From contig CAZQQS010000014.1 of NCBI GenBank assembly GCA_964595665.1, forward strand, positions 1 to 14,140: a DNA stretch of 14,140 nt, read 5' to 3'. The translations under genes were made by a program, and so were the position numbers. The notes below the pieces were generated by a model, which saw only the letters and a program-made list of their open reading frames with translations, was not told the origin of the DNA and ran no database searches. The number at the start of each line of letters is the position of its first letter. Position 1 is the first letter of the stretch. Source of the stretch: an uncultured archaeon. Lineage in GTDB: Archaea > Iainarchaeota > Iainarchaeia > Iainarchaeales > 0-14-0-20-30-16. Below are positions 2,956-13,562 of the stretch, piece by piece.

Positions 2956-3975
2956 ATGAGTTTTTTAATTATAGGAAATAAATTGGAATCTTTAATCCTT
3001 TCTGATTATTTATATGAACATGGTTGGCCAGTAAATTTAATGTCTAAGCTTGGTTTTGAATATAGGGGCGATTATGAGTTAGCTAATCCAAAAGAATTGG
3101 AAAAGTTAGGTTTTGATTACAAACCTTATATTTTGACTGAAATTCATAAAATGAAGGTAATAGATTATTTTGGGAATATTTTAGAAAGAAATACACATAC
3201 AATATTATTAAATTTGTCTAAACCAAGCAATGATTTGTATATAAAATTAAAAAAAACCTCTAAAGTATATACTGATACCACATATATTGACAAAAATAAT
3301 GAAAACATATTTATTCAGCAAGGAGTTCATGGAACTTTATTAAAAGCAAAACACGTTTTTGCAGTAAATGATTTAAATTTAGCAAATAACTTAAAAACTA
3401 AAAAATGTATTAAAGCGAGTATAGAATTAAAAAATGAAATAGGATTATTAACTTTAAAATTTTTGGAAACAGGTTATTTATGGTATGTTAATTATTCCGC
3501 AAGAGTTTCTGAATTGTGTATTATATCTGATACACCAGAAAAAGATTTGGAAACATTTATTTTGGAAACTGGTGCAAAAATAATTTATAGAAAAGGAATT
3601 TTATTACCCTATTTTAAATCTGAAAGACCTTTAGAAAATAAAGGGGTTTATTTATCTGGAGATAGTGCTTTTATTAATAATAATTTAAATTTTTATAATT
3701 TTACTTTAAAAATAGATTTTATGCATTTAACCTGTAAGTTTGCACATGATTTAATGACTAAGAAAAATATAAGTTATGCTTTTTTTACAAGAGATTTTGA
3801 TAAATTATTAGACAAATACTCTAAGCAAGGAGATGTTTTTTGGAGTTTATCTAAAGAACAAAGAAATAAACTAATTGAAAAAATGTCTTTTAATAAGTTC
3901 GCATTAGATTTTAGTTCTGCATTTGAAAATAGTTCTATATTATCTTTGCCTAAAATAAAATTATTGTTTAGATGA
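2956..3975 (+). CDS. Geranylgeranyl-reductase-like (FAD-dependent oxidoreductase fold) protein with degenerate cofactor motifs
   Basis: Co-linear by eye with archaeal digeranylgeranylglycerophospholipid reductases. AKHVFAVNDLNL matches AxxVIGADG, GYLWYVNYS matches GYxWVFP, and GVYLSGDSAFINN matches GxxLVGDAAGxxxP. The N-terminal dinucleotide-binding GxGxxG is G-N-K-L-E-S here. SD-like GTGAT at 2948-2952 precedes ATG 2956. Confidence 0.5.
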   Translation: MSFLIIGNKLESLILSDYLYEHGWPVNLMSKLGFEYRGDYELANPKELEKLGFDYKPYILTEIHKMKVIDYFGNILERNTHTILLNLSKPSNDLYIKLKKTSKVYTDTTYIDKNNENIFIQQGVHGTLLKAKHVFAVNDLNLANNLKTKKCIKASIELKNEIGLLTLKFLETGYLWYVNYSARVSELCIISDTPEKDLETFILETGAKIIYRKGILLPYFKSERPLENKGVYLSGDSAFINNNLNFYNFTLKIDFMHLTCKFAHDLMTKKNISYAFFTRDFDKLLDKYSKQGDVFWSLSKEQRNKLIEKMSFNKFALDFSSAFENSSILSLPKIKLLFR

Positions 3976-6416: not shown

Positions 6417-7388
6417 ATGTTTAATGGTAAAAGTAATGTTATTTTAATATTTGTATTTATTTTTATATTTTTATTTAGTGGATTAAATTTTATTTCTAGT
6501 GAAGATACTTTTGATGTTGGGGTAAGTGTTTCTAATGGAGTCCCTGAAATTCAAGATGTGAATGTTTGTGAAGTAGATACTTGTTCTAAATATATTGATG
6601 AAATAATTCCAGGTAATAGTACCTTTGTTTTACAAGTTCAAGGTTATGATCCTAATGGAATTATAGATATTAATTGGGATGCTACTGTAGTTCATATTTA
6701 TGCCGAAGGCTTATCTTTCGATAGTAATGTAGATTTTGATGGAAATTTAGATTATAGAAAATATTCTGTGAATACTAGTTTGACTGAAGAGTATAATGGT
6801 TTTATTTTTGAAGATGGCGAGGGTTGTACGAGTAGTTCAACTAGTGTTTCCGAGGTAAAATGTTTGAAATTTACGGAAGATATTTTTACTTATGGTTTTG
6901 CTTTAGGTGGTGCAAACATATATGTTCAAATATTTGATAATGCGGATGAAGATTCTGATTATGATTTGATGTTTTTAGAAGATGTAAATGGATTAAATAT
7001 AGGTTTGTCTTTAAGTTTTGCCATAGGTATTAGTGATGAACATGGAATAACTTATTCTGGTGCACCAGGAGATGAAAATGTAGAATTTTATAATGCTGAT
7101 AATACTAGCAATTATTTTGATATAACTAATGAAAGTAATACAAATATTGATTTGAATTTAAGCCATACAGATTTATTATATGATTTAAATAATAGTATAA
7201 CAATCGATAAAGAATATATTCACGGCAATAAAAAAGACCAAAATTTTGGTTTAGGTAGTTTATTCTTGCCTGTGAATTTAGGTATAGATGCAACTATGCA
7301 ATTAAAAACATATTTAGATATTCCAGTAGGTATACCTTCAGGAGCATATTCTGGTACTTTGGGTGTTGCTATAACTCAAAGAGAATAG
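6417..7388 (+). CDS. Secreted protein P1, unknown function; stand-alone copy of the domain found at the C-terminus of P4
   Basis: N-terminal signal-like segment (KSNVILIFVFIFIFLFSGLNFISS). No C-terminal anchor. Acidic, with many N-x-S/T sequons. Predicted beta-rich, ending ...LDIPVGIPSGAYSGTLGVAITQRE. Homologous by eye to P4 residues ~613-879, sharing the motifs PEI, EDGEGC, SG-x-PG-[DE]-EN and LD-[IM]-P...SG-x-YSGT. Confidence 0.8.
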   Translation: MFNGKSNVILIFVFIFIFLFSGLNFISSEDTFDVGVSVSNGVPEIQDVNVCEVDTCSKYIDEIIPGNSTFVLQVQGYDPNGIIDINWDATVVHIYAEGLSFDSNVDFDGNLDYRKYSVNTSLTEEYNGFIFEDGEGCTSSSTSVSEVKCLKFTEDIFTYGFALGGANIYVQIFDNADEDSDYDLMFLEDVNGLNIGLSLSFAIGISDEHGITYSGAPGDENVEFYNADNTSNYFDITNESNTNIDLNLSHTDLLYDLNNSITIDKEYIHGNKKDQNFGLGSLFLPVNLGIDATMQLKTYLDIPVGIPSGAYSGTLGVAITQRE

Positions 7389-7397
7389 TGAGTTAAC

Positions 7398-8018
7398 ATG
7401 AATAAAGGTTGGTTAATATTAATATTTGGAATAATTTTAAGCTCGTATGTTTCAGCTTTAGCTTGTGTTGGTTTGGGTGGTGGGGGCTATACTGTTTTAA
7501 CATCAAAAGAACAACCAACATATATTACTTATACTATCTTTAATAAAGATTCTAAAGGTGTTTGTGATAGTGGGCGATATTCTTTAGAATTAACTTTAGA
7601 TTCTGAGGATATCTATAAAGTGTTTGATTTTGTAATTTCGGATGATGGTTTTATATTAAACGATGGGGAATCTAAAAAAGTATTAATCACATTAATCCCT
7701 TTAGTAGAAGATGGCAATTATACTTTAAAGGTTTCAGCTTTAAGAGCTGGTTTAATTGAAACACAGAATGCTACTGCGGTTATGCCCAAAACTATTAGTT
7801 CGATTAAAATAAATGTTAATGAGGAATATAATTCTAAATTTACTGATTTACCAAAGTGGTATATTTTAAAACAAAAAGAACGAAAACAATTTATATTTAA
7901 GATAGTTATTTTATCAATTATAATAATAGTAATTATTTTTGTAATTTTGTATTTAGTTTTATTTAGATTTAAAAAAATAAAATCAATTAGAAAATCAACT
8001 TCTTACAAATATAAGTGA
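7398..8018 (+). CDS. Membrane-anchored surface protein P2 (signal peptide, single beta-sandwich-like ectodomain, C-terminal TM helix plus basic tail)
   Basis: N-terminus MNKGWLILIFGIILSSYVSALA. The ectodomain has a CARDB/Ig-like pattern: ...FILNDGESKKVLITLIPLVEDGNYTLKVSA. The C-terminus is FIFKIVILSIIIIVIIFVILYLVLF followed by RFKKIKSIRKSTSYKYK. It starts 9 nt after the P1 stop. Confidence 0.75.
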   Translation: MNKGWLILIFGIILSSYVSALACVGLGGGGYTVLTSKEQPTYITYTIFNKDSKGVCDSGRYSLELTLDSEDIYKVFDFVISDDGFILNDGESKKVLITLIPLVEDGNYTLKVSALRAGLIETQNATAVMPKTISSIKINVNEEYNSKFTDLPKWYILKQKERKQFIFKIVILSIIIIVIIFVILYLVLFRFKKIKSIRKSTSYKYK

Positions 8019-8023
8019 TTTCT

Positions 8024-9385
8024 TTGAAGATTAATTTTATTTTAATAATTTTTTTAGTATTATTTTTAACTCCAAATATTTTTAGTAAAGAGTTTTCAGT
8101 TGGTGCAATTATTTTAAATGGAGCCCCACTAAAACCAGAGCTTATTGAAATAAATGATCTTTATGGTATTAATAATATTGCTTTTAGTTGGAGTAGTTTT
8201 GATTATGAACATGATTCTATAAAATATTTTTTACAAGTTGGTTCTTTTTTAGGTAGTAAAGATATTTTAGATATTAATTTAGATGAAAATTATTATAATA
8301 TAACTCTAGATCTAGGAAAACAGTATTTTTATAGGGTTAAAGCTTGCGATAATTATTATGGAGATTATAATAATTGTAGTGATTGGGGTTACGATTCATT
8401 TTATTTATTAACATTTATAATAATTCCTCCTTCAGGAGGTGGAGGGGGTGGGTCTTCAAGTTCTCAAGTAATAATTTATGGTTGTAAAGAATTAGAGGGA
8501 ATAATTTGTAATTCAAATGAATTATGTTATGATAATTTAATTGCTACTTATGATACACAAAGTTGTTGTTTTTCAAAATGTATTTTAAAAGATGATTTGG
8601 GTAAGGTTGTGGATTCAAATATAGCCCAAATTGATTTGGAATTAAGTTCGCCAATTAACGAAATTATTGCAGTATATCCTTTAGATGGGGTAATAAATCT
8701 TTTTCAAAAAAGGTTTTTAACAGATTCAGAAATAACTATAAAAAAAACAATGAGAATTTATAATATAATTAATGTTTATGGTATGCCAGAATATAGGGTA
8801 TTTATATTTATTACTATTAAAAATATTTCTAAGGATAAATTAACTAATTTAGAGATTTTAACTCTTGTTCCAAATAGTTTTGTAAATGATCTTTATGAAG
8901 TAAATAGTAACAATATATTTATTAGGGTTGTTGATAAAAATATGCTAAAATTTGATAAAGATTTTTTAGATTCTGGAGAAAGTTATAATATAGATTATTA
9001 TTTTGATACTAGTAAAGAATTTATAGTTTTAGAAAATTTATTTAAGGGTTTATCAGCACCTTTGGTTTTGACTAAAATGGATGATTCTGATAATTGTGCA
9101 GGTATTTTTTGTAATGATTTTAATCCTTGTACGACAGATTTTTGTCATGATGGTTTTTGTAAATTTATAAATAATAATCTAAATTGTGAGAATGGAAGGT
9201 GTATTGGGGGTAAGTGTGTATTAGTAATTCCTGAAAAAAAATCTTTAATTAATTGGAAAATATATCTTGTAATTGGAGTAATTTTATTTATAATTATAAT
9301 TTTTGTTTTATTAATATATTTTTTACGTAAACCAAAAAACAAAGAACATTGGTTTTTACAATCAAATATAAGGGATTTTATATGA
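8024..9385 (+). CDS. Membrane-anchored mosaic surface protein P3 (signal peptide, FN3-like domain, Gly/Ser linker, Cys-rich modules, beta-sandwich, C-terminal TM)
   Basis: FN3-like pattern: IAFSWSS...YFLQVGS...YFYRVKACD. Linker PPSGGGGGGSSSS (about 8428-8466). Cys cluster: C-x7-C-x5-C-x13-CC-x3-C. Second Cys-rich block CNDFNPCTTDFCHDGFC...C..G.C..GKC (9080-9220) resembles the C-x-D-x-N-x-C-T-x-D-x-C repeat signature. TM segment WKIYLVIGVILFIIIIFVLLIYFL is followed by RKPKNK. No ATG is available: the options are GTG 8015 (track) or TTG 8024, which is preferred because GTGAT 8015-8019 sits 4 nt upstream. Confidence 0.75.
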   Translation: MKINFILIIFLVLFLTPNIFSKEFSVGAIILNGAPLKPELIEINDLYGINNIAFSWSSFDYEHDSIKYFLQVGSFLGSKDILDINLDENYYNITLDLGKQYFYRVKACDNYYGDYNNCSDWGYDSFYLLTFIIIPPSGGGGGGSSSSQVIIYGCKELEGIICNSNELCYDNLIATYDTQSCCFSKCILKDDLGKVVDSNIAQIDLELSSPINEIIAVYPLDGVINLFQKRFLTDSEITIKKTMRIYNIINVYGMPEYRVFIFITIKNISKDKLTNLEILTLVPNSFVNDLYEVNSNNIFIRVVDKNMLKFDKDFLDSGESYNIDYYFDTSKEFIVLENLFKGLSAPLVLTKMDDSDNCAGIFCNDFNPCTTDFCHDGFCKFINNNLNCENGRCIGGKCVLVIPEKKSLINWKIYLVIGVILFIIIIFVLLIYFLRKPKNKEHWFLQSNIRDFI

Positions 9386-12021
9386 GTATTTGGAATGTAT
9401 TTTATAAGGTTTTATTTATTATAATTTTTTTGTTTGGTAATGTTTTTGTTTTTTGTGATAGTTTTTATGATTCATTACAAACAGATTTTGATTTAGGTAG
9501 TTTTAATAATACTATTTCACACGAAGATGGTCATATAATATTAGATACTTCTGGTTCAAATTATTATTCTGATGGTGAATTTGAATCGCAAATCTTTGAT
9601 GCCGGAATAAATTCTAATTTAACTTCATTAAAATTTTCTACACCTAATTATTATAAACAAGATTTGCCTGGAAATGGAGGTGCAGAAAAAGATATTAATA
9701 TGTATGGAAATGTTTTTTTAATGAATGTTAATAATGATTCTATTATAGCGGATGTTGCCGAAAGTTATGGTTTGGGCTTAGTAGGAACATTTAGTTCAGT
9801 TAGTGGAAAATTTGGTAATGCATTAAGTTTTAATGGTTCTAATAATATTGCTTTTACAGATATTTTAGTCCCGTCAAATGAATATACTTTTTCATTGTGG
9901 ATAAAAACAAATACTAAGAGCAGACCTGTATTTACTTTTTCTAATGAAACGCCTTCTAATTCTACTTATGATAGAAGATTAAGTATTGATGCTTCTGGGC
10001 ATTTAGTATATTATGTTTATCCAAACACAGGGGTTACTTTAACAGGCACTAATACAACTGTTGCAAATAATAGTTGGCATCATATTGCTATTGTAAGTAA
10101 ATATAATGGTTCAAAATATGATATTAATGTTTATTTTGATGGTAGTTTGGATTCTAGTGCTACTAATTTAAATTTTGGAGGTTATAATGGTTATACTTTA
10201 CCAAGATTAAATTTGGGAAATAGTGGAACGTTTTTTTTAGGTGCTTTAGATGATTTTGCATATTATGATCGAGCTTTAAGTTTTGATGAAATTCAAGATA
10301 TTTACAATTCTGGAGATGGTTTGGAATTTTGGGAAGATGATTTAATTGCTGGTTGGCGGTTTGAAGAAACAAACCCTGCTTTAAGTTTAGAAGATACTTC
10401 ACCAACACCCAAAACTTTTGTATATCCTACAGTTACAAATAATTATTTGGGTATAGGGTATAGCCCTTACAATTATTATAGTTTATTTTCTCAAAATATT
10501 TATGCGAATACAAATTATTATTTGAAAACATCACAATTCTATCCTCCAACTGCCGCTATGAGTATTAGTTTTTGGATGAAAACTAAATTAGATCGAAAAA
10601 GTATTTTAGGATGGGTTGGGGGTATGGCAAACAATAGTGTGTTTATTGAAAATGGAAATTTAAAATGGTATTTTTCATCAGCACCAACGTATTTTGCAAG
10701 TACTTCTGCATTAAATGATGGTGAATGGCATCATATAGTTTTAACGCGTAATGCAAATAATTCTAGAAAAATATATGTTGATGGAGTATTAAATAATACA
10801 TCTACAAGTACATATACTATAGATAATAGTTTTACAACTGCCGTAGCATTGTATTTTTTTCATAGTGCTGTATATAGTGCTGGTTCAGGAACATTGGATC
10901 AAGTATCTGTATGGTCTCGAGAGTTAGTTTTAGATGAAATATCGAATATTTACAAAAGAGGTGTTGGCGAATTAAGATTACAATTAAAAGGTTGTGCGAT
11001 TTCAGATTGTTCAGATTCTGTTTTTGTAGGTCCTGATGGCGAAGATTCTTATTTTGAATTAACTAATTCAGAGTATGATTTGTCAAATTTATTTTCTGGA
11101 TTCAGATATTTTCAGTATGCGAGTTTTTTTGAAGTTTTAGATTTAATTGCTTCAAAAAACATATCTCCAAAATTAGAAGATGTTAATTTAAGTTATGAAT
11201 CTGCAGTTGTAGAAAATTCCGAACCCGAGATTTTAAGTTTGCAAATTTGTAAAGATGGTTGTGAAAATTCAAAATATATTTTGCCGGGTTTAGAATCGTT
11301 TATTGTAAAATTAGAAATCAATGATTCTGATGGTTTTGAAGATTTAAATTTAGATTCAAGTATTTTGAAAATATATTCTAATATTTTAACATCTGATTCA
11401 GAAGATGATTGGGATCACATAACTTTAACGAATTTAATAAATGAAGATGGGGAAGGATGTATTACGGAGTATAATTATATTTGTTATTTGGTATCGGATA
11501 GTAATATACCCTTAAAATTTAGTTCTGGTGCAACTAATGTTTTTTTTGGAATTTCTGATTCAGTTTCAAATTATGATAATTATGAATTAGAATATTTGTT
11601 AGATGAAAATGATGTTTTGATCTCTGGAATTGATATGGGAGAAGTTCTAAGTTTAAGTATTGATACTAGTTCTGGTAATTTTTCAGGGAATCCTGGAGAA
11701 GAGAATATTCCTATAAGTACCAACACTTCAGAAAACTATATTGCTATAACTCATGAAGGTAATTGTGATGTAAATTTATATTTGGTAACGAGTGAGTTAA
11801 TTTATTCGGATTATGAATTTCCTATTTCTGCTTTTGAATGGAATTTAGAAGACATTGTTTTAGAAAATCATTTAGATAGTAATGAAACATTAATTATCGA
11901 GGATTGGTCGCGAGGTGTTTATCCAGATTCAAATATAAATCATATTTTTCTTTGGTTAGATATGCCACCAGTTGTTTCTGGAGAATATTCGGGAACATTT
12001 TCTTTTGAAGTAAGAAATTAG
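9382..12021 (+). CDS. Large secreted adhesin-like protein P4: signal peptide, N-terminal beta module, two LamG (concanavalin A-like lectin/glucanase) domains, Cys-containing spacer, C-terminal P1-like domain
   Basis: LamG-1 (~9720-10320): GKFGNALSFNGSNN...YTFSLWIKT...WHHIAIV...VYFDGSL...GALDDFAYYDRALSFDEIQDIY. LamG-2 (~10340-10968): MSISFWMKT...EWHHIVLT...IYVDGVL...LDQVSVWSRELVLDEISNIY. Both match the Laminin_G_3 pattern. The C-terminal part (11218-12018) is paralogous to P1. I place the start at ATG 9382, which gives an ATGA overlap with the P3 stop and the signal peptide MSIWNVFYKVLFIIIFLFGNVFVFC. The track uses TTG 9349. Confidence 0.85.
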   Translation: MSIWNVFYKVLFIIIFLFGNVFVFCDSFYDSLQTDFDLGSFNNTISHEDGHIILDTSGSNYYSDGEFESQIFDAGINSNLTSLKFSTPNYYKQDLPGNGGAEKDINMYGNVFLMNVNNDSIIADVAESYGLGLVGTFSSVSGKFGNALSFNGSNNIAFTDILVPSNEYTFSLWIKTNTKSRPVFTFSNETPSNSTYDRRLSIDASGHLVYYVYPNTGVTLTGTNTTVANNSWHHIAIVSKYNGSKYDINVYFDGSLDSSATNLNFGGYNGYTLPRLNLGNSGTFFLGALDDFAYYDRALSFDEIQDIYNSGDGLEFWEDDLIAGWRFEETNPALSLEDTSPTPKTFVYPTVTNNYLGIGYSPYNYYSLFSQNIYANTNYYLKTSQFYPPTAAMSISFWMKTKLDRKSILGWVGGMANNSVFIENGNLKWYFSSAPTYFASTSALNDGEWHHIVLTRNANNSRKIYVDGVLNNTSTSTYTIDNSFTTAVALYFFHSAVYSAGSGTLDQVSVWSRELVLDEISNIYKRGVGELRLQLKGCAISDCSDSVFVGPDGEDSYFELTNSEYDLSNLFSGFRYFQYASFFEVLDLIASKNISPKLEDVNLSYESAVVENSEPEILSLQICKDGCENSKYILPGLESFIVKLEINDSDGFEDLNLDSSILKIYSNILTSDSEDDWDHITLTNLINEDGEGCITEYNYICYLVSDSNIPLKFSSGATNVFFGISDSVSNYDNYELEYLLDENDVLISGIDMGEVLSLSIDTSSGNFSGNPGEENIPISTNTSENYIAITHEGNCDVNLYLVTSELIYSDYEFPISAFEWNLEDIVLENHLDSNETLIIEDWSRGVYPDSNINHIFLWLDMPPVVSGEYSGTFSFEVRN

Positions 12022-12056: not shown

Positions 12057-13562
12057 ATGTCTGATTATATTGGTACAGTTTTAACTTATAATAATACTCC
12101 GAGCATAGATAAAGTATATTTTCAATTAAATGATAAAATTAATTTGAAAATAGGTCAATTTGTGTCCATAGAGCACGATAACAAAGTATTTGGTATGGTA
12201 ACAGGAATATTTAGGGATAATCCTTTTTTTGAACAATTGCATACAGATTTTCATAGTATAAAAGATGCTTTTGATACTACTACTTGGCATAAAACATTAG
12301 TTGAGGTTAATTTATTGGGTTCATTTGTTGATGGCAAACCAAATAAAATTATTAATCCTCCTTATTCGGGTTCGAGAGTTAATTTTGCATTATCTAATGA
12401 AATTATTTCTTTTTTGGGATTTAGTGCTGATGGGTTATATTTGGGAAATATTGAAACAGATAATGAAAATGTAGATGTTAAAATTAATTTATCCAAATTA
12501 TTGCAAAAGCATTTTGCTATTTTGGCAATGAGTGGTGCTGGAAAGTCATATGCAATTTCTGTTTTGTTAGAAGAATTATTATCTATGCCAAAAGAAAAGT
12601 CTTTAGGGTTAGTTTTATTTGATGTTCATGGAGAATACAGAAATTTTGCGGAACCATCATCTAAAGAGTTTACAGATTATAGTTCTAAAGTTAGATATTA
12701 TGATGCTTCTCAAATGAAGTTTGCCTTACATTCATTAAATGATAGTTTTTTATTTAATATTTTAGGAGATATTTCTGAAGTTCAAAAAAGAGAGTTATTA
12801 AAAATCTTAAATGAGTTCAAAAAAGATGATGAAAAGAAAGTTTTTGATTTACAAGATATTATGAATTATTTAGAAAGTTTAGATTTAAAGAAAAATGTTA
12901 AAGAGCCATTATTAAATTGGTTAGCACAAGCTGAAAGTCAAAATATTTTTAGTAAAACAAATACTTTTGATATATTTAAGATTGCAGAACAAGGTAAATT
13001 AACAATTATTGATTTGTCAAATGTTTTGAATATGCTTCATAAGCAAATGATTGTAGCATATTTATCTAATAAATTATTTGAATTACGAAGATTGGAAAAA
13101 ATAGTTCCATTTACAATATTTTTAGAAGAGGCACATCAATTTATTCCTCAATCTGGTGCAAGTGAATTTATGAAATCTCGAGCAGTTTTTGAAACTATTG
13201 CAAGAGAAGGTAGAAAGTTTGGGGCATCTTTATGTTTGATTTCTCAAAGACCAATAAATTTATCTACAACTGTTTTAAGTCAATGTAATACACATATGCT
13301 TTTGAGAGTTATTAATCCAAATGATTTAAAACACATTTCCGAGTCATCCGAAGGTTTAGATTCTTCAAGTATAAAGTTAATTACTGGTTTAAATGTTGGT
13401 GAAGCTTTGTTAGTTGGTTCGGCAGTAAAGTATCCTGTATTTTTTAAAGTTAGAGAAAGAAAGTCTCAACCAAATAAATACGAATTAGATTTAGAACAAA
13501 TGTCTAAAAAATTCTTAAATAAAAAAGAAGAAAAAGAAAAAGATTTGGATTTATTTATGTAA
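12057..13562 (+). CDS. herA: HerA-type hexameric DNA translocase/helicase ATPase (COG0433, DUF87 core) with N-terminal HAS-barrel
   Basis: HAS-barrel-like N-terminus: IGTVLTY...KIGQFVSIEHDNKVFGMVTGI. Walker A: ILAMSGAGKS (about 12525-12548). Walker B: FTIFLEEAHQF (about 13110-13137). IAREGRKFGASLCLISQRPINLSTTVLSQCNTHMLLRVINPND...LNVGEALLVG is co-linear over the full length with crenarchaeal HerA as I recall it. Confidence 0.85.
   Translation: MSDYIGTVLTYNNTPSIDKVYFQLNDKINLKIGQFVSIEHDNKVFGMVTGIFRDNPFFEQLHTDFHSIKDAFDTTTWHKTLVEVNLLGSFVDGKPNKIINPPYSGSRVNFALSNEIISFLGFSADGLYLGNIETDNENVDVKINLSKLLQKHFAILAMSGAGKSYAISVLLEELLSMPKEKSLGLVLFDVHGEYRNFAEPSSKEFTDYSSKVRYYDASQMKFALHSLNDSFLFNILGDISEVQKRELLKILNEFKKDDEKKVFDLQDIMNYLESLDLKKNVKEPLLNWLAQAESQNIFSKTNTFDIFKIAEQGKLTIIDLSNVLNMLHKQMIVAYLSNKLFELRRLEKIVPFTIFLEEAHQFIPQSGASEFMKSRAVFETIAREGRKFGASLCLISQRPINLSTTVLSQCNTHMLLRVINPNDLKHISESSEGLDSSSIKLITGLNVGEALLVGSAVKYPVFFKVRERKSQPNKYELDLEQMSKKFLNKKEEKEKDLDLFM

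Follow-up and report, generated by a model that had tools for sequence, protein, structure and literature searches.

What might four adjacent genes build when the last of them ends in a copy of the first? The question is raised by the window analyzed here, a complete contig of 14,140 bp with ~25% guanine plus cytosine (G+C), in which the genes P1, P2, P3 and P4 follow one another head to tail on the + strand. An earlier note on this DNA had proposed that the C-terminal part of P4 is a paralogue of the whole mature P1, and that its fusion to a lectin head makes P4 the tip adhesin of a polymer of P1. The paralogy was confirmed in each of its particulars by sequence comparison, and the main new result is that the genes belong to a conserved gene kit with variable heads. 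P1 to P4 and their relatives represent an undescribed cell-surface kit, present in about a dozen uncultured microbes, that probably builds either a fiber or a docking platform displaying an adhesin.

Alignment of the two proteins confirmed that P1 and the last ~270 residues of P4 are homologous from end to end. BLASTP with compositional adjustment returned one dominant alignment, between residues 38-255 of P1 and 621-819 of P4 (numbered from an upstream TTG; 610-808 from the ATG), with 68/225 identities (30%, within the quarter to a third first estimated) and E=5e-22. When mature P1 and the P4 tail were compared by local Smith-Waterman alignment, the match spanned the sequence from the N-x-x-P-E-I motif (VSNGVPEI/VENSEPEI) through the last strand and scored 257, while 1000 shuffles of P1 scored 48 ± 8.8 with a maximum of 92 (z=23.8). 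The terminal segments YLDIPVGIPSGAYSGTLGVAI and WLDMPPVVSGEYSGTFSFEV, previously paired by eye, aligned collinearly with the rest, at a score reached by 2/2000 shuffles. A profile of the family matched both P1 and P4 with E<1e-70, and the same relationship was found in the orthologous locus L001. The hexapeptide EDGEGC was located in both proteins exactly where the earlier note had placed it; its DNA is identical at 15/18 bases with differing synonymous codons and is not a recent copy.

The N-terminal part of P4 agreed with the proposed pair of LamG domains. PF13385 (Laminin_G_3) matched in two stretches, the best at residues 162-316 of the open reading frame (ORF), with 126.5 bits against a gathering score of 27.6 (E=1.3e-36), and PF02210 matched residues 430-489 (E=1.8e-9). 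On these profile matches, the P4 head is assigned to the LamG/concanavalin-A-like lectin superfamily. No family match was obtained for the first ~100 residues of P4 (9382-9830) or for the ~80 residues that follow the second LamG domain (10950-11200; …FRYFQYASFFEVLD…SPKLEDVNLSY). These two stretches may be the halves of one split β-domain that is interrupted by the LamG pair.

Sequence searches of Pfam, NCBIfam, PADLOC and PDB gave no match for the P1 module, with P1 and the P4 tail both searched against Pfam and NCBIfam at E≤0.1. Word-indexed homologue searches gave two matches for P1 and none for the P4 tail, and the family was recovered only when 1.84 billion representative proteins were searched exhaustively with a profile. 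In this way, no more than 30 proteins (clusters) were identified at E≤0.001. Most of these relatives have ~300 residues and a signal peptide. Three are long (875-1263 amino acids), with LamG or FN3+LamG regions that are followed by the module at the extreme C-terminus.

Gene contexts were analyzed for three relatives (L005-L007) and eight metagenome loci (L008-L015) by a six-frame scan with the module and P2 profiles. In each of the other loci with upstream DNA (9/9), the gene directly upstream of the stand-alone copy ended in the module; that of L013 was a second paralogue without a head. All eight loci with downstream DNA encoded a P2-like protein directly downstream of the stand-alone copy (E down to 1e-108 with the P2 profile), in which a signal peptide is combined with a Cys pair, a β-rich ectodomain and a transmembrane helix. 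The gene order in L010 and L011 was long form, stand-alone copy, P2-like protein, FN3-repeat protein and small anchored protein. The FN3-repeat proteins of these two loci, with 1032-1218 residues and a transmembrane anchor, have FN3 units in common with P3 of the window, whose FN3 part matched them at E values of 1e-9 to 1e-17. The heads of the long forms varied from LamG (the window and P0003) through FN3+LamG (P0015 and P0018) to unannotated sequence (L010 and L011), and in L010 the LamG domain was found on the P3-like protein, not on the long form. Identity between the stand-alone and the fused copy of one locus was 40-46% in L010 and L011 and 30% in the window. The G+C content of the kit loci ranged from 24 to 51%, and the L011 cluster adjoins transposases. 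The small and large genes occur together in over 10 independent loci, with heads that can be exchanged, which marks their pairing as a conserved and selected feature.

The head-less paralogue of L013 (genes at 171-1064 and 1087-1587) has 298 amino acids, a signal peptide and an extra N-terminal segment of ~16 residues, DVSVNLELGNPQSLSVSATVS, and in this it resembles P0004, P0017 and P0021. Such paralogues may constitute a third, adaptor-like class.

A neighbor-joining analysis showed that the long-form modules of the main clade were separated from the adjacent stand-alone proteins in 99/100 bootstraps. The duplication in this clade is old and both copies were kept, and their division into two orthologous groups therefore points to non-redundant roles. 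The two kinds of copy also differed at the N-terminus. All stand-alone members carried an amphipathic strand, (V/I)x(V/I)TATVGNxAP, 0-5 residues past the signal peptide, and a profile of this strand scored 12-23 bits in every one of them and ~3 bits or less (background ≤3.5) elsewhere, with one exception. The long forms of L010 and L011 have no such strand, and a Pro-rich linker leads into their module.

The fold of the module was predicted with AlphaFold2. The model, built from a 23-sequence alignment (A4), consisted of two tandem β-sandwiches with a mean predicted local distance difference test (pLDDT) score of 87.2 and a predicted template modelling (pTM) score of 0.79, whereas a three-sequence version was unusable (pLDDT 47.6). 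Only the segment of the amphipathic strand was left unpaired and at lower confidence, with residues 1-11 of the model as coil (pLDDT ~72), compared with 93-97 in the blocks that follow. Four conserved cysteines (C-x4-C and GC...C) lie in domain 1, together with a DPNG..DIN loop and EDGEGC, and C19, C24, C105, C117, D52 and G104 are conserved alignment columns. Domain 2 ends in a hairpin, W-L-D-I-P...G-x-Y-x-G-T, which reads YLDIP...GAYSGTLGV in P1. P1 is strongly acidic, as is the P4 tail (~50 Asp+Glu versus 7-10 Lys+Arg). Matches of domain 2 to DUF4402, for which a library search turned up no literature, remained below threshold in the few members concerned (17 bits, cut-off 25).

Two further observations concern the architecture of the family. 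P0027 (172 amino acids) and P0028 (268 amino acids) matched domain 2 of the module only (E ~5e-5), the former also with a sub-threshold DUF4402 match across nearly the whole profile, and thus the second sandwich exists as a stand-alone secreted domain as well. P0014, P0022 and P0025 form a sub-clade with an N-terminal extension of ~55 residues before the module, in which the motif S-x-x-Y-x-(L/I)...G-Q...G...S-x-x-Y is repeated.

A hydrophobic, signal-like stretch opens all four proteins P1 to P4, and only P2 and P3 also close with a transmembrane helix. The sole hydrophobic segment of P1 (residues 1-29) and that of P4 are N-terminal, consistent with cleaved signal peptides, while P2 has segments at residues 3-28 and 161-197 and P3 at 1-27 and 409-442. 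P2, the conserved partner, is a candidate membrane anchor and P3 a candidate second anchor or stalk; comparison with hhalign detected no homology of either to the P1 module. The four genes lie behind a 68-nucleotide spacer 5' of P1, which holds a TATA-like tract and a GAGGTG motif. The P2 stop overlaps the GTG start of P3 by 4 nucleotides (8015-8018) and the P3 stop overlaps the P4 start as ATGA (9382-9385), which suggests translational coupling. P4 probably starts at ATG 9382 and not at the TTG at 9349 listed by the ORF finder; the residue numbering of the earlier note fits this ATG, and a called gene on record encodes exactly this 879-residue product. Coordinates are collected in Table 1.

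Table 1 Features of the P1-P4 cluster in the window
Feature	Position	Strand	Description
P1	6417..7388	+	ORF, 323 amino acids; stand-alone module copy, signal-like N-terminal segment, no other anchor
Conserved amphipathic strand, P1 mature N-terminus (TFDVGVSVSNGVP)	6507..6545	+	Candidate donor or docking strand; motif profile
P1 domain 1	6546..6938 (approximate)	+	β-sandwich, model strands 12-142
EDGEGC in P1	6810..6827	+	Exact coordinates confirmed
P1 domain 2	6951..7379 (approximate)	+	β-sandwich, model strands 147-289
P2	7398..8018	+	Signal peptide, β-rich ectodomain with conserved Cys pair, C-terminal transmembrane anchor
P3	8015..9385	+	Signal peptide, FN3-like domain, Gly/Ser linker, Cys-rich modules, C-terminal transmembrane anchor
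P4	9382..12021	+	Signal peptide, two-LamG head, C-terminal P1-like module; 879 amino acids from ATG
P4 head, two concanavalin-A-like/LamG domains	9832..10953 (second boundaries approximate)	+	PF13385, PF02210
P4 C-terminal module	11200..12018	+	BLASTP E=5e-22; z=23.8; family hidden Markov model positions 5-269 of 271, E=4.6e-90
EDGEGC in P4	11443..11460	+	Exact coordinates confirmed

P1 to P4 may encode a Sec-exported surface assembly in which P1 forms the fiber or stalk, P4 the distal adhesin unit and P2 and P3 the anchors, a reading to which we give somewhat less than an even chance. The ~270-residue module, with its two tandem, disulfide-braced, acidic β-sandwiches, would act as the self-associating building block. 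P1, as the bare block, would form a short fiber or stalk, and P4, which has the same block at its C-terminus and the lectin head at its free N-terminus, would be the distal, ligand-binding unit. P2 and/or P3 would hold the base on the cell through their C-terminal transmembrane helices. The joint would be the amphipathic strand at the mature N-terminus of the stand-alone protein, added to the module of the neighboring, more distal unit; a head-bearing unit would have no need for it. Because P1 and the P4 tail have the same fold, a strand that binds the P4 tail should bind P1 too, and a fiber would result, in keeping with the FimA/FimH logic of the earlier note. Established here are the homology, the signals for export and anchoring, the fold and a conserved set of genes whose heads vary. 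Self-association, its polarity, the strand as joint and the anchoring by P2/P3 are features that we infer, and an assembly unit with the head-bearing copy outermost is plausible, being expected from the presence of bare and headed C-terminal modules, anchored neighbors and a strand restricted to the bare copies.

Such a fiber is favored by the homology over the whole module, the conserved pairing, and heads that are swapped on a module that is always C-terminal. It is further favored by the separate orthologous groups, the stand-alone N-terminal strand left unpaired in the AlphaFold2 model, anchors in P2 and P3 only, and coupled genes. Precedents also exist for chaperone-free, strand-complemented archaeal fibers, namely threads (PMC9715654) and tafi (PMC11821415). 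On a more tentative footing, the kit could represent an undescribed class of chaperone-free archaeal fiber, polymerized through N-terminal strands, rooted by P2/P3 and capped by an adhesin with swapped heads, possibly a DPANN-like host-attachment organelle.

Nevertheless, a number of results weigh against a fiber. In the window lineage, which sits on long branches, P1 and the P4 tail grouped together in 80/100 trees, a grouping that may reflect an independent duplication or long-branch attraction. The long forms other than those of L010 and L011, P4 with its SAVVEN among them, carry a degenerate strand only, and with this remnant kept in P4 and the clustering in 80/100 trees, the window lineage does not show the clear split between stand-alone and long forms. 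In L010 (~9800-9850), residues 790-801 of the P3-like protein include ITATVGNEPPT, a near-exact copy of ITATVGNEVPT in the neighboring stand-alone subunit (12.8 bits). This internal copy precedes an Ig-like domain, and the motif may therefore be an ordinary A (first) strand. No conserved peptidase, chaperone, usher, sortase or ATPase accompanies the kit, leaving it without a conserved assembly factor, and the gene count of each locus, exactly one small and one large, would suit a 1:1 platform just as well. The Foldseek matches in PDB and BFVD were all generic tandem Ig-like proteins with template modelling scores ≤0.31, including integrin legs, PorU, VPS26, Gram-positive pilins, WxLIP, RbmA and phage tail proteins, and no strand-exchange pilin was among the top 50 PDB matches. 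The monomer model consists of two closed sandwiches (pLDDT 87) with no evident missing strand, and the C-terminal hairpin gave a weak match to the final strand of GH123_N_2, a closed domain (profile positions 111-141 of 142), so that the terminal strand appears unlike a FimA-type missing-strand arrangement.

Two further ideas were considered. The GH123_N_2 alignment speaks against a domain 2 that lacks its last strand, as in FimA, and P3 as a general strand-donating anchor was dropped, since the motif is found only in the P3-like protein of L010, with P3 of the window and of L001 at background. Of the tip-adhesin architecture advanced in the earlier note, the lectin head on a copy of mature P1 has stood and the pairing has proved to be conserved, whereas the model has no evident FimA-type missing strand; the likeness looked for among chaperone-usher pilins, TasA, AbpA and thread subunits was not borne out in the top 50 matches. 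A major subunit with a tip adhesin is plausible and is strengthened by the comparative genomics, but it has a serious rival.

This rival is a docking platform without a polymer, for which the model is the WxL clusters of Lactobacillales/Bacillales. There, a small domain-only protein is accompanied by a large protein with 1-4 binding domains and a C-terminal WxL domain, and the transmembrane-anchored WxLIP, a partner of two Ig domains, places one of its strands beside the N-terminus of WxL (PMC10599100). Firmicute WxL clusters share the design of the kit and are not filaments (PMC10599100), which likewise speaks against a fiber. By analogy, P1 and P4 would stand side by side, held by the anchored, Ig-like P2 (and P3); the module would be a docking domain, with P1 stabilizing the platform and P4 presenting the lectin head. 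We regard this arrangement as possible though doubtful. It is consistent with one small, one large and one anchored P2-like gene per locus, with module domains that are closed in the model, and with a WxLIP structure among the Foldseek matches (9i1y, E=1.2e-3), though that match is generic. However, Pfam WxL gave no match at E≤0.1, nor at E≤1 over 23 members, no DUF916 or DUF3324 match was found in P1, P4, P2 or the relatives of P2, and P2 had no PDB sequence match to WxLIP. The order of the W-L-D-I-P...G-x-Y-x-G-T motif differs from that of the dual WxL motif, which also counts against a platform. Moreover, archaea lack peptidoglycan, the ligand of the WxL domain, and a platform leaves unexplained why a conserved free N-terminal strand is kept only in the stand-alone copies.

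It is unlikely that the module is simply a rigid two-Ig spacer, reused by duplication, with P1 as an independent secreted protein, unrelated in function, and no interaction between the two. Tandem Ig domains are common as spacers and the fold matches are generic, but at the extreme C-terminus of an anchor-less protein the module would space nothing, and the trio of small, large and P2-like proteins is conserved across lineages of 24-51% G+C, with two orthologous groups. Even less probable is a two-dimensional, S-layer-like lattice, in which P1 would form a canopy tethered by P2, in a logic like that of SlaA/SlaB, and P4 would be an occasional head-bearing subunit. P1 is acidic, disulfide-braced, anchor-less and two-domain and is encoded beside a small transmembrane-anchored partner, and the argument from the shared module applies as it does for a fiber. 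Against this stand the rarity of the family (~30 clusters in the searched representatives), large FN3-repeat proteins that are more typical of adhesion kits, the lack of likeness to known S-layer proteins in Pfam, PDB or Foldseek output, and the transposases beside the L011 cluster, which suggest accessory rather than core envelope genes. Finally, a compositional artefact of Asn/Asp/Ser-rich, low-G+C coding sequence is already refuted, because, rich in Asp, Asn and Ser as both P1 and the P4 tail are, the BLASTP value was adjusted for composition, the shuffles preserve it, the family profile matches both proteins, and the pairing recurs at 40-46% identity in unrelated loci.

The housekeeping genes of the window, among them those for an archaeal/eukaryotic-type t6A methylthiotransferase (TIGR01578; 324 bits, above cut-off), a PRK08560-type tyrosyl-tRNA synthetase and an RNA 3'-phosphate cyclase, point to an archaeon, apparently a small-genome, DPANN-like one. 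A close orthologous locus was found on 34-49 kb contigs from anaerobic-digester metagenomes (PMC10793357). A HerA-like ATPase gene (12057-13562) lies on the same strand 36 nucleotides past P4; its product has HAS-barrel and DUF87 domains with weak CedD and VirB4/TraC-type matches, and no NurA gene is adjacent. Although kept in the close orthologous locus, HerA was rejected as a member of the kit, because it is absent beside the cluster in L010 and L011. A 339-residue ORF (2956-3975) between the RNA cyclase gene and a gene for an LPG-synthase-like membrane protein had no Pfam or NCBIfam match and is conserved in the orthologous locus. The orthologous contig L001 further encodes a prepilin peptidase (Peptidase_A24; 1-374), ~10 kb upstream of the kit, and a transmembrane-anchored surface protein of 669 residues with VWA and cadherin-like domains (17191-19200), on the opposite strand just past HerA. 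No Rfam match was found in the window, L010 or L011, and PADLOC gave no defence match for P1 to P4.

Little is known of how uncultured small-genome archaea attach to surfaces or hosts. The kit is a conserved four-gene surface set with interchangeable binding heads, built around a module that no database describes, and it provides both a testable candidate for an attachment structure and a profile for metagenome searches.

Judged by its sequence, and with the accessory genes of those systems missing, the module belongs to none of the families considered here (fimbrial, TasA, thread, Taf and WxL), and its resemblance to known systems is one of design. In chaperone-usher pili (FimA/FimH), the adhesin combines an N-terminal lectin with the C-terminal subunit fold, as P4 does, the subunits have an N-terminal strand that is missing from the adhesin, as proposed here, and the genes form one operon; P1 to P4 are likewise arranged, starting with the small subunit and ending with the adhesin. 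These pili differ in sequence and fold, with no match of P1 or the P4 tail to Fimbrial (PF00419) in Pfam/NCBIfam (E≤0.1) and none of the family profile in PDB. The module has two domains and is apparently closed, and its terminal strand looks like the last one of a complete sandwich. Furthermore, the clusters of the window, L010 and L011 include no PapD-like chaperone or usher gene, and an archaeon lacks both a periplasm and an outer membrane. Type V pili (FimA/Mfa1 of Bacteroidia) and Gram-positive sortase pili resemble the module in that their shafts are built of at least two tandem β-sandwich domains, and Gram-positive major pilins were among the generic Foldseek matches (6ixy, 3pg2 and 4hsq; template modelling scores ≤0.28). 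Unlike them, the kit shows no lipobox or protease-processing logic and lacks both LPXTG and a sortase; P1 and P4 end 4-6 residues past the last strand, without a C-terminal hydrophobic segment as a sorting signal.

WxL clusters share with the kit the combination of a small domain-only protein, a large head-plus-domain protein and an anchored partner, seen as P1, P4 and P2 in the window and in 9-10 further loci, in design only. They are bacterial and bind peptidoglycan, and the WxL domain has 160-190 residues and a dual W-x-L motif. P2 has one small ectodomain where WxLIP has two Ig domains, in an analogous topology of signal peptide, β-ectodomain and transmembrane helix.

The tat-fimbriae (tafi) of haloarchaea consist of the shaft protein TafA, the LamG tip TafC, the adapter TafE and the membrane anchor TafF (PMC11821415), and their predicted LamG tip with the fold of the shaft subunit, together with a transmembrane-anchored terminal subunit, resembles the kit (PMC11821415). 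They differ in domain order, since the pilin-like part of TafC is N-terminal and its LamG domain C-terminal, the reverse of P4, and the P4 LamG region scored 33.4 bits against the TafC equivalog NF052521 (cut-off 410). Tafi also have Tat signals and single-domain, DUF1102-like subunits, whereas the N-termini MFNGKSNVIL... and MSIWNVFYKV... hold no RR motif; the peptidase TafD and TafG (DUF5305) are absent here, with neither an S26 peptidase nor DUF5305 in the cluster. In Sulfolobus threads, formed by the subunit Saci_0406 with the adjacent paralogue Saci_0405 as putative cap, the mature N-terminus is the donor strand (PMC9715654). Like the kit, threads have a signal-peptidase-I-type precursor, an adjacent paralogue as the proposed cap and no known dedicated assembly machinery (PMC9715654). 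Their subunits are dissimilar in sequence and have a tail and a head with isopeptide bonds, and their cap bears no lectin head; Saci_0406, AbpA and TasA (Peptidase_M73) gave no Pfam match and were absent from the top 50 Foldseek PDB matches. The kit is a sequence-unrelated instance of a known design. If it forms a fiber, the shaft-plus-tip-adhesin design would have been invented independently once more, and if it forms a platform, archaea would have their own counterpart of the WxL system of Gram-positive bacteria.

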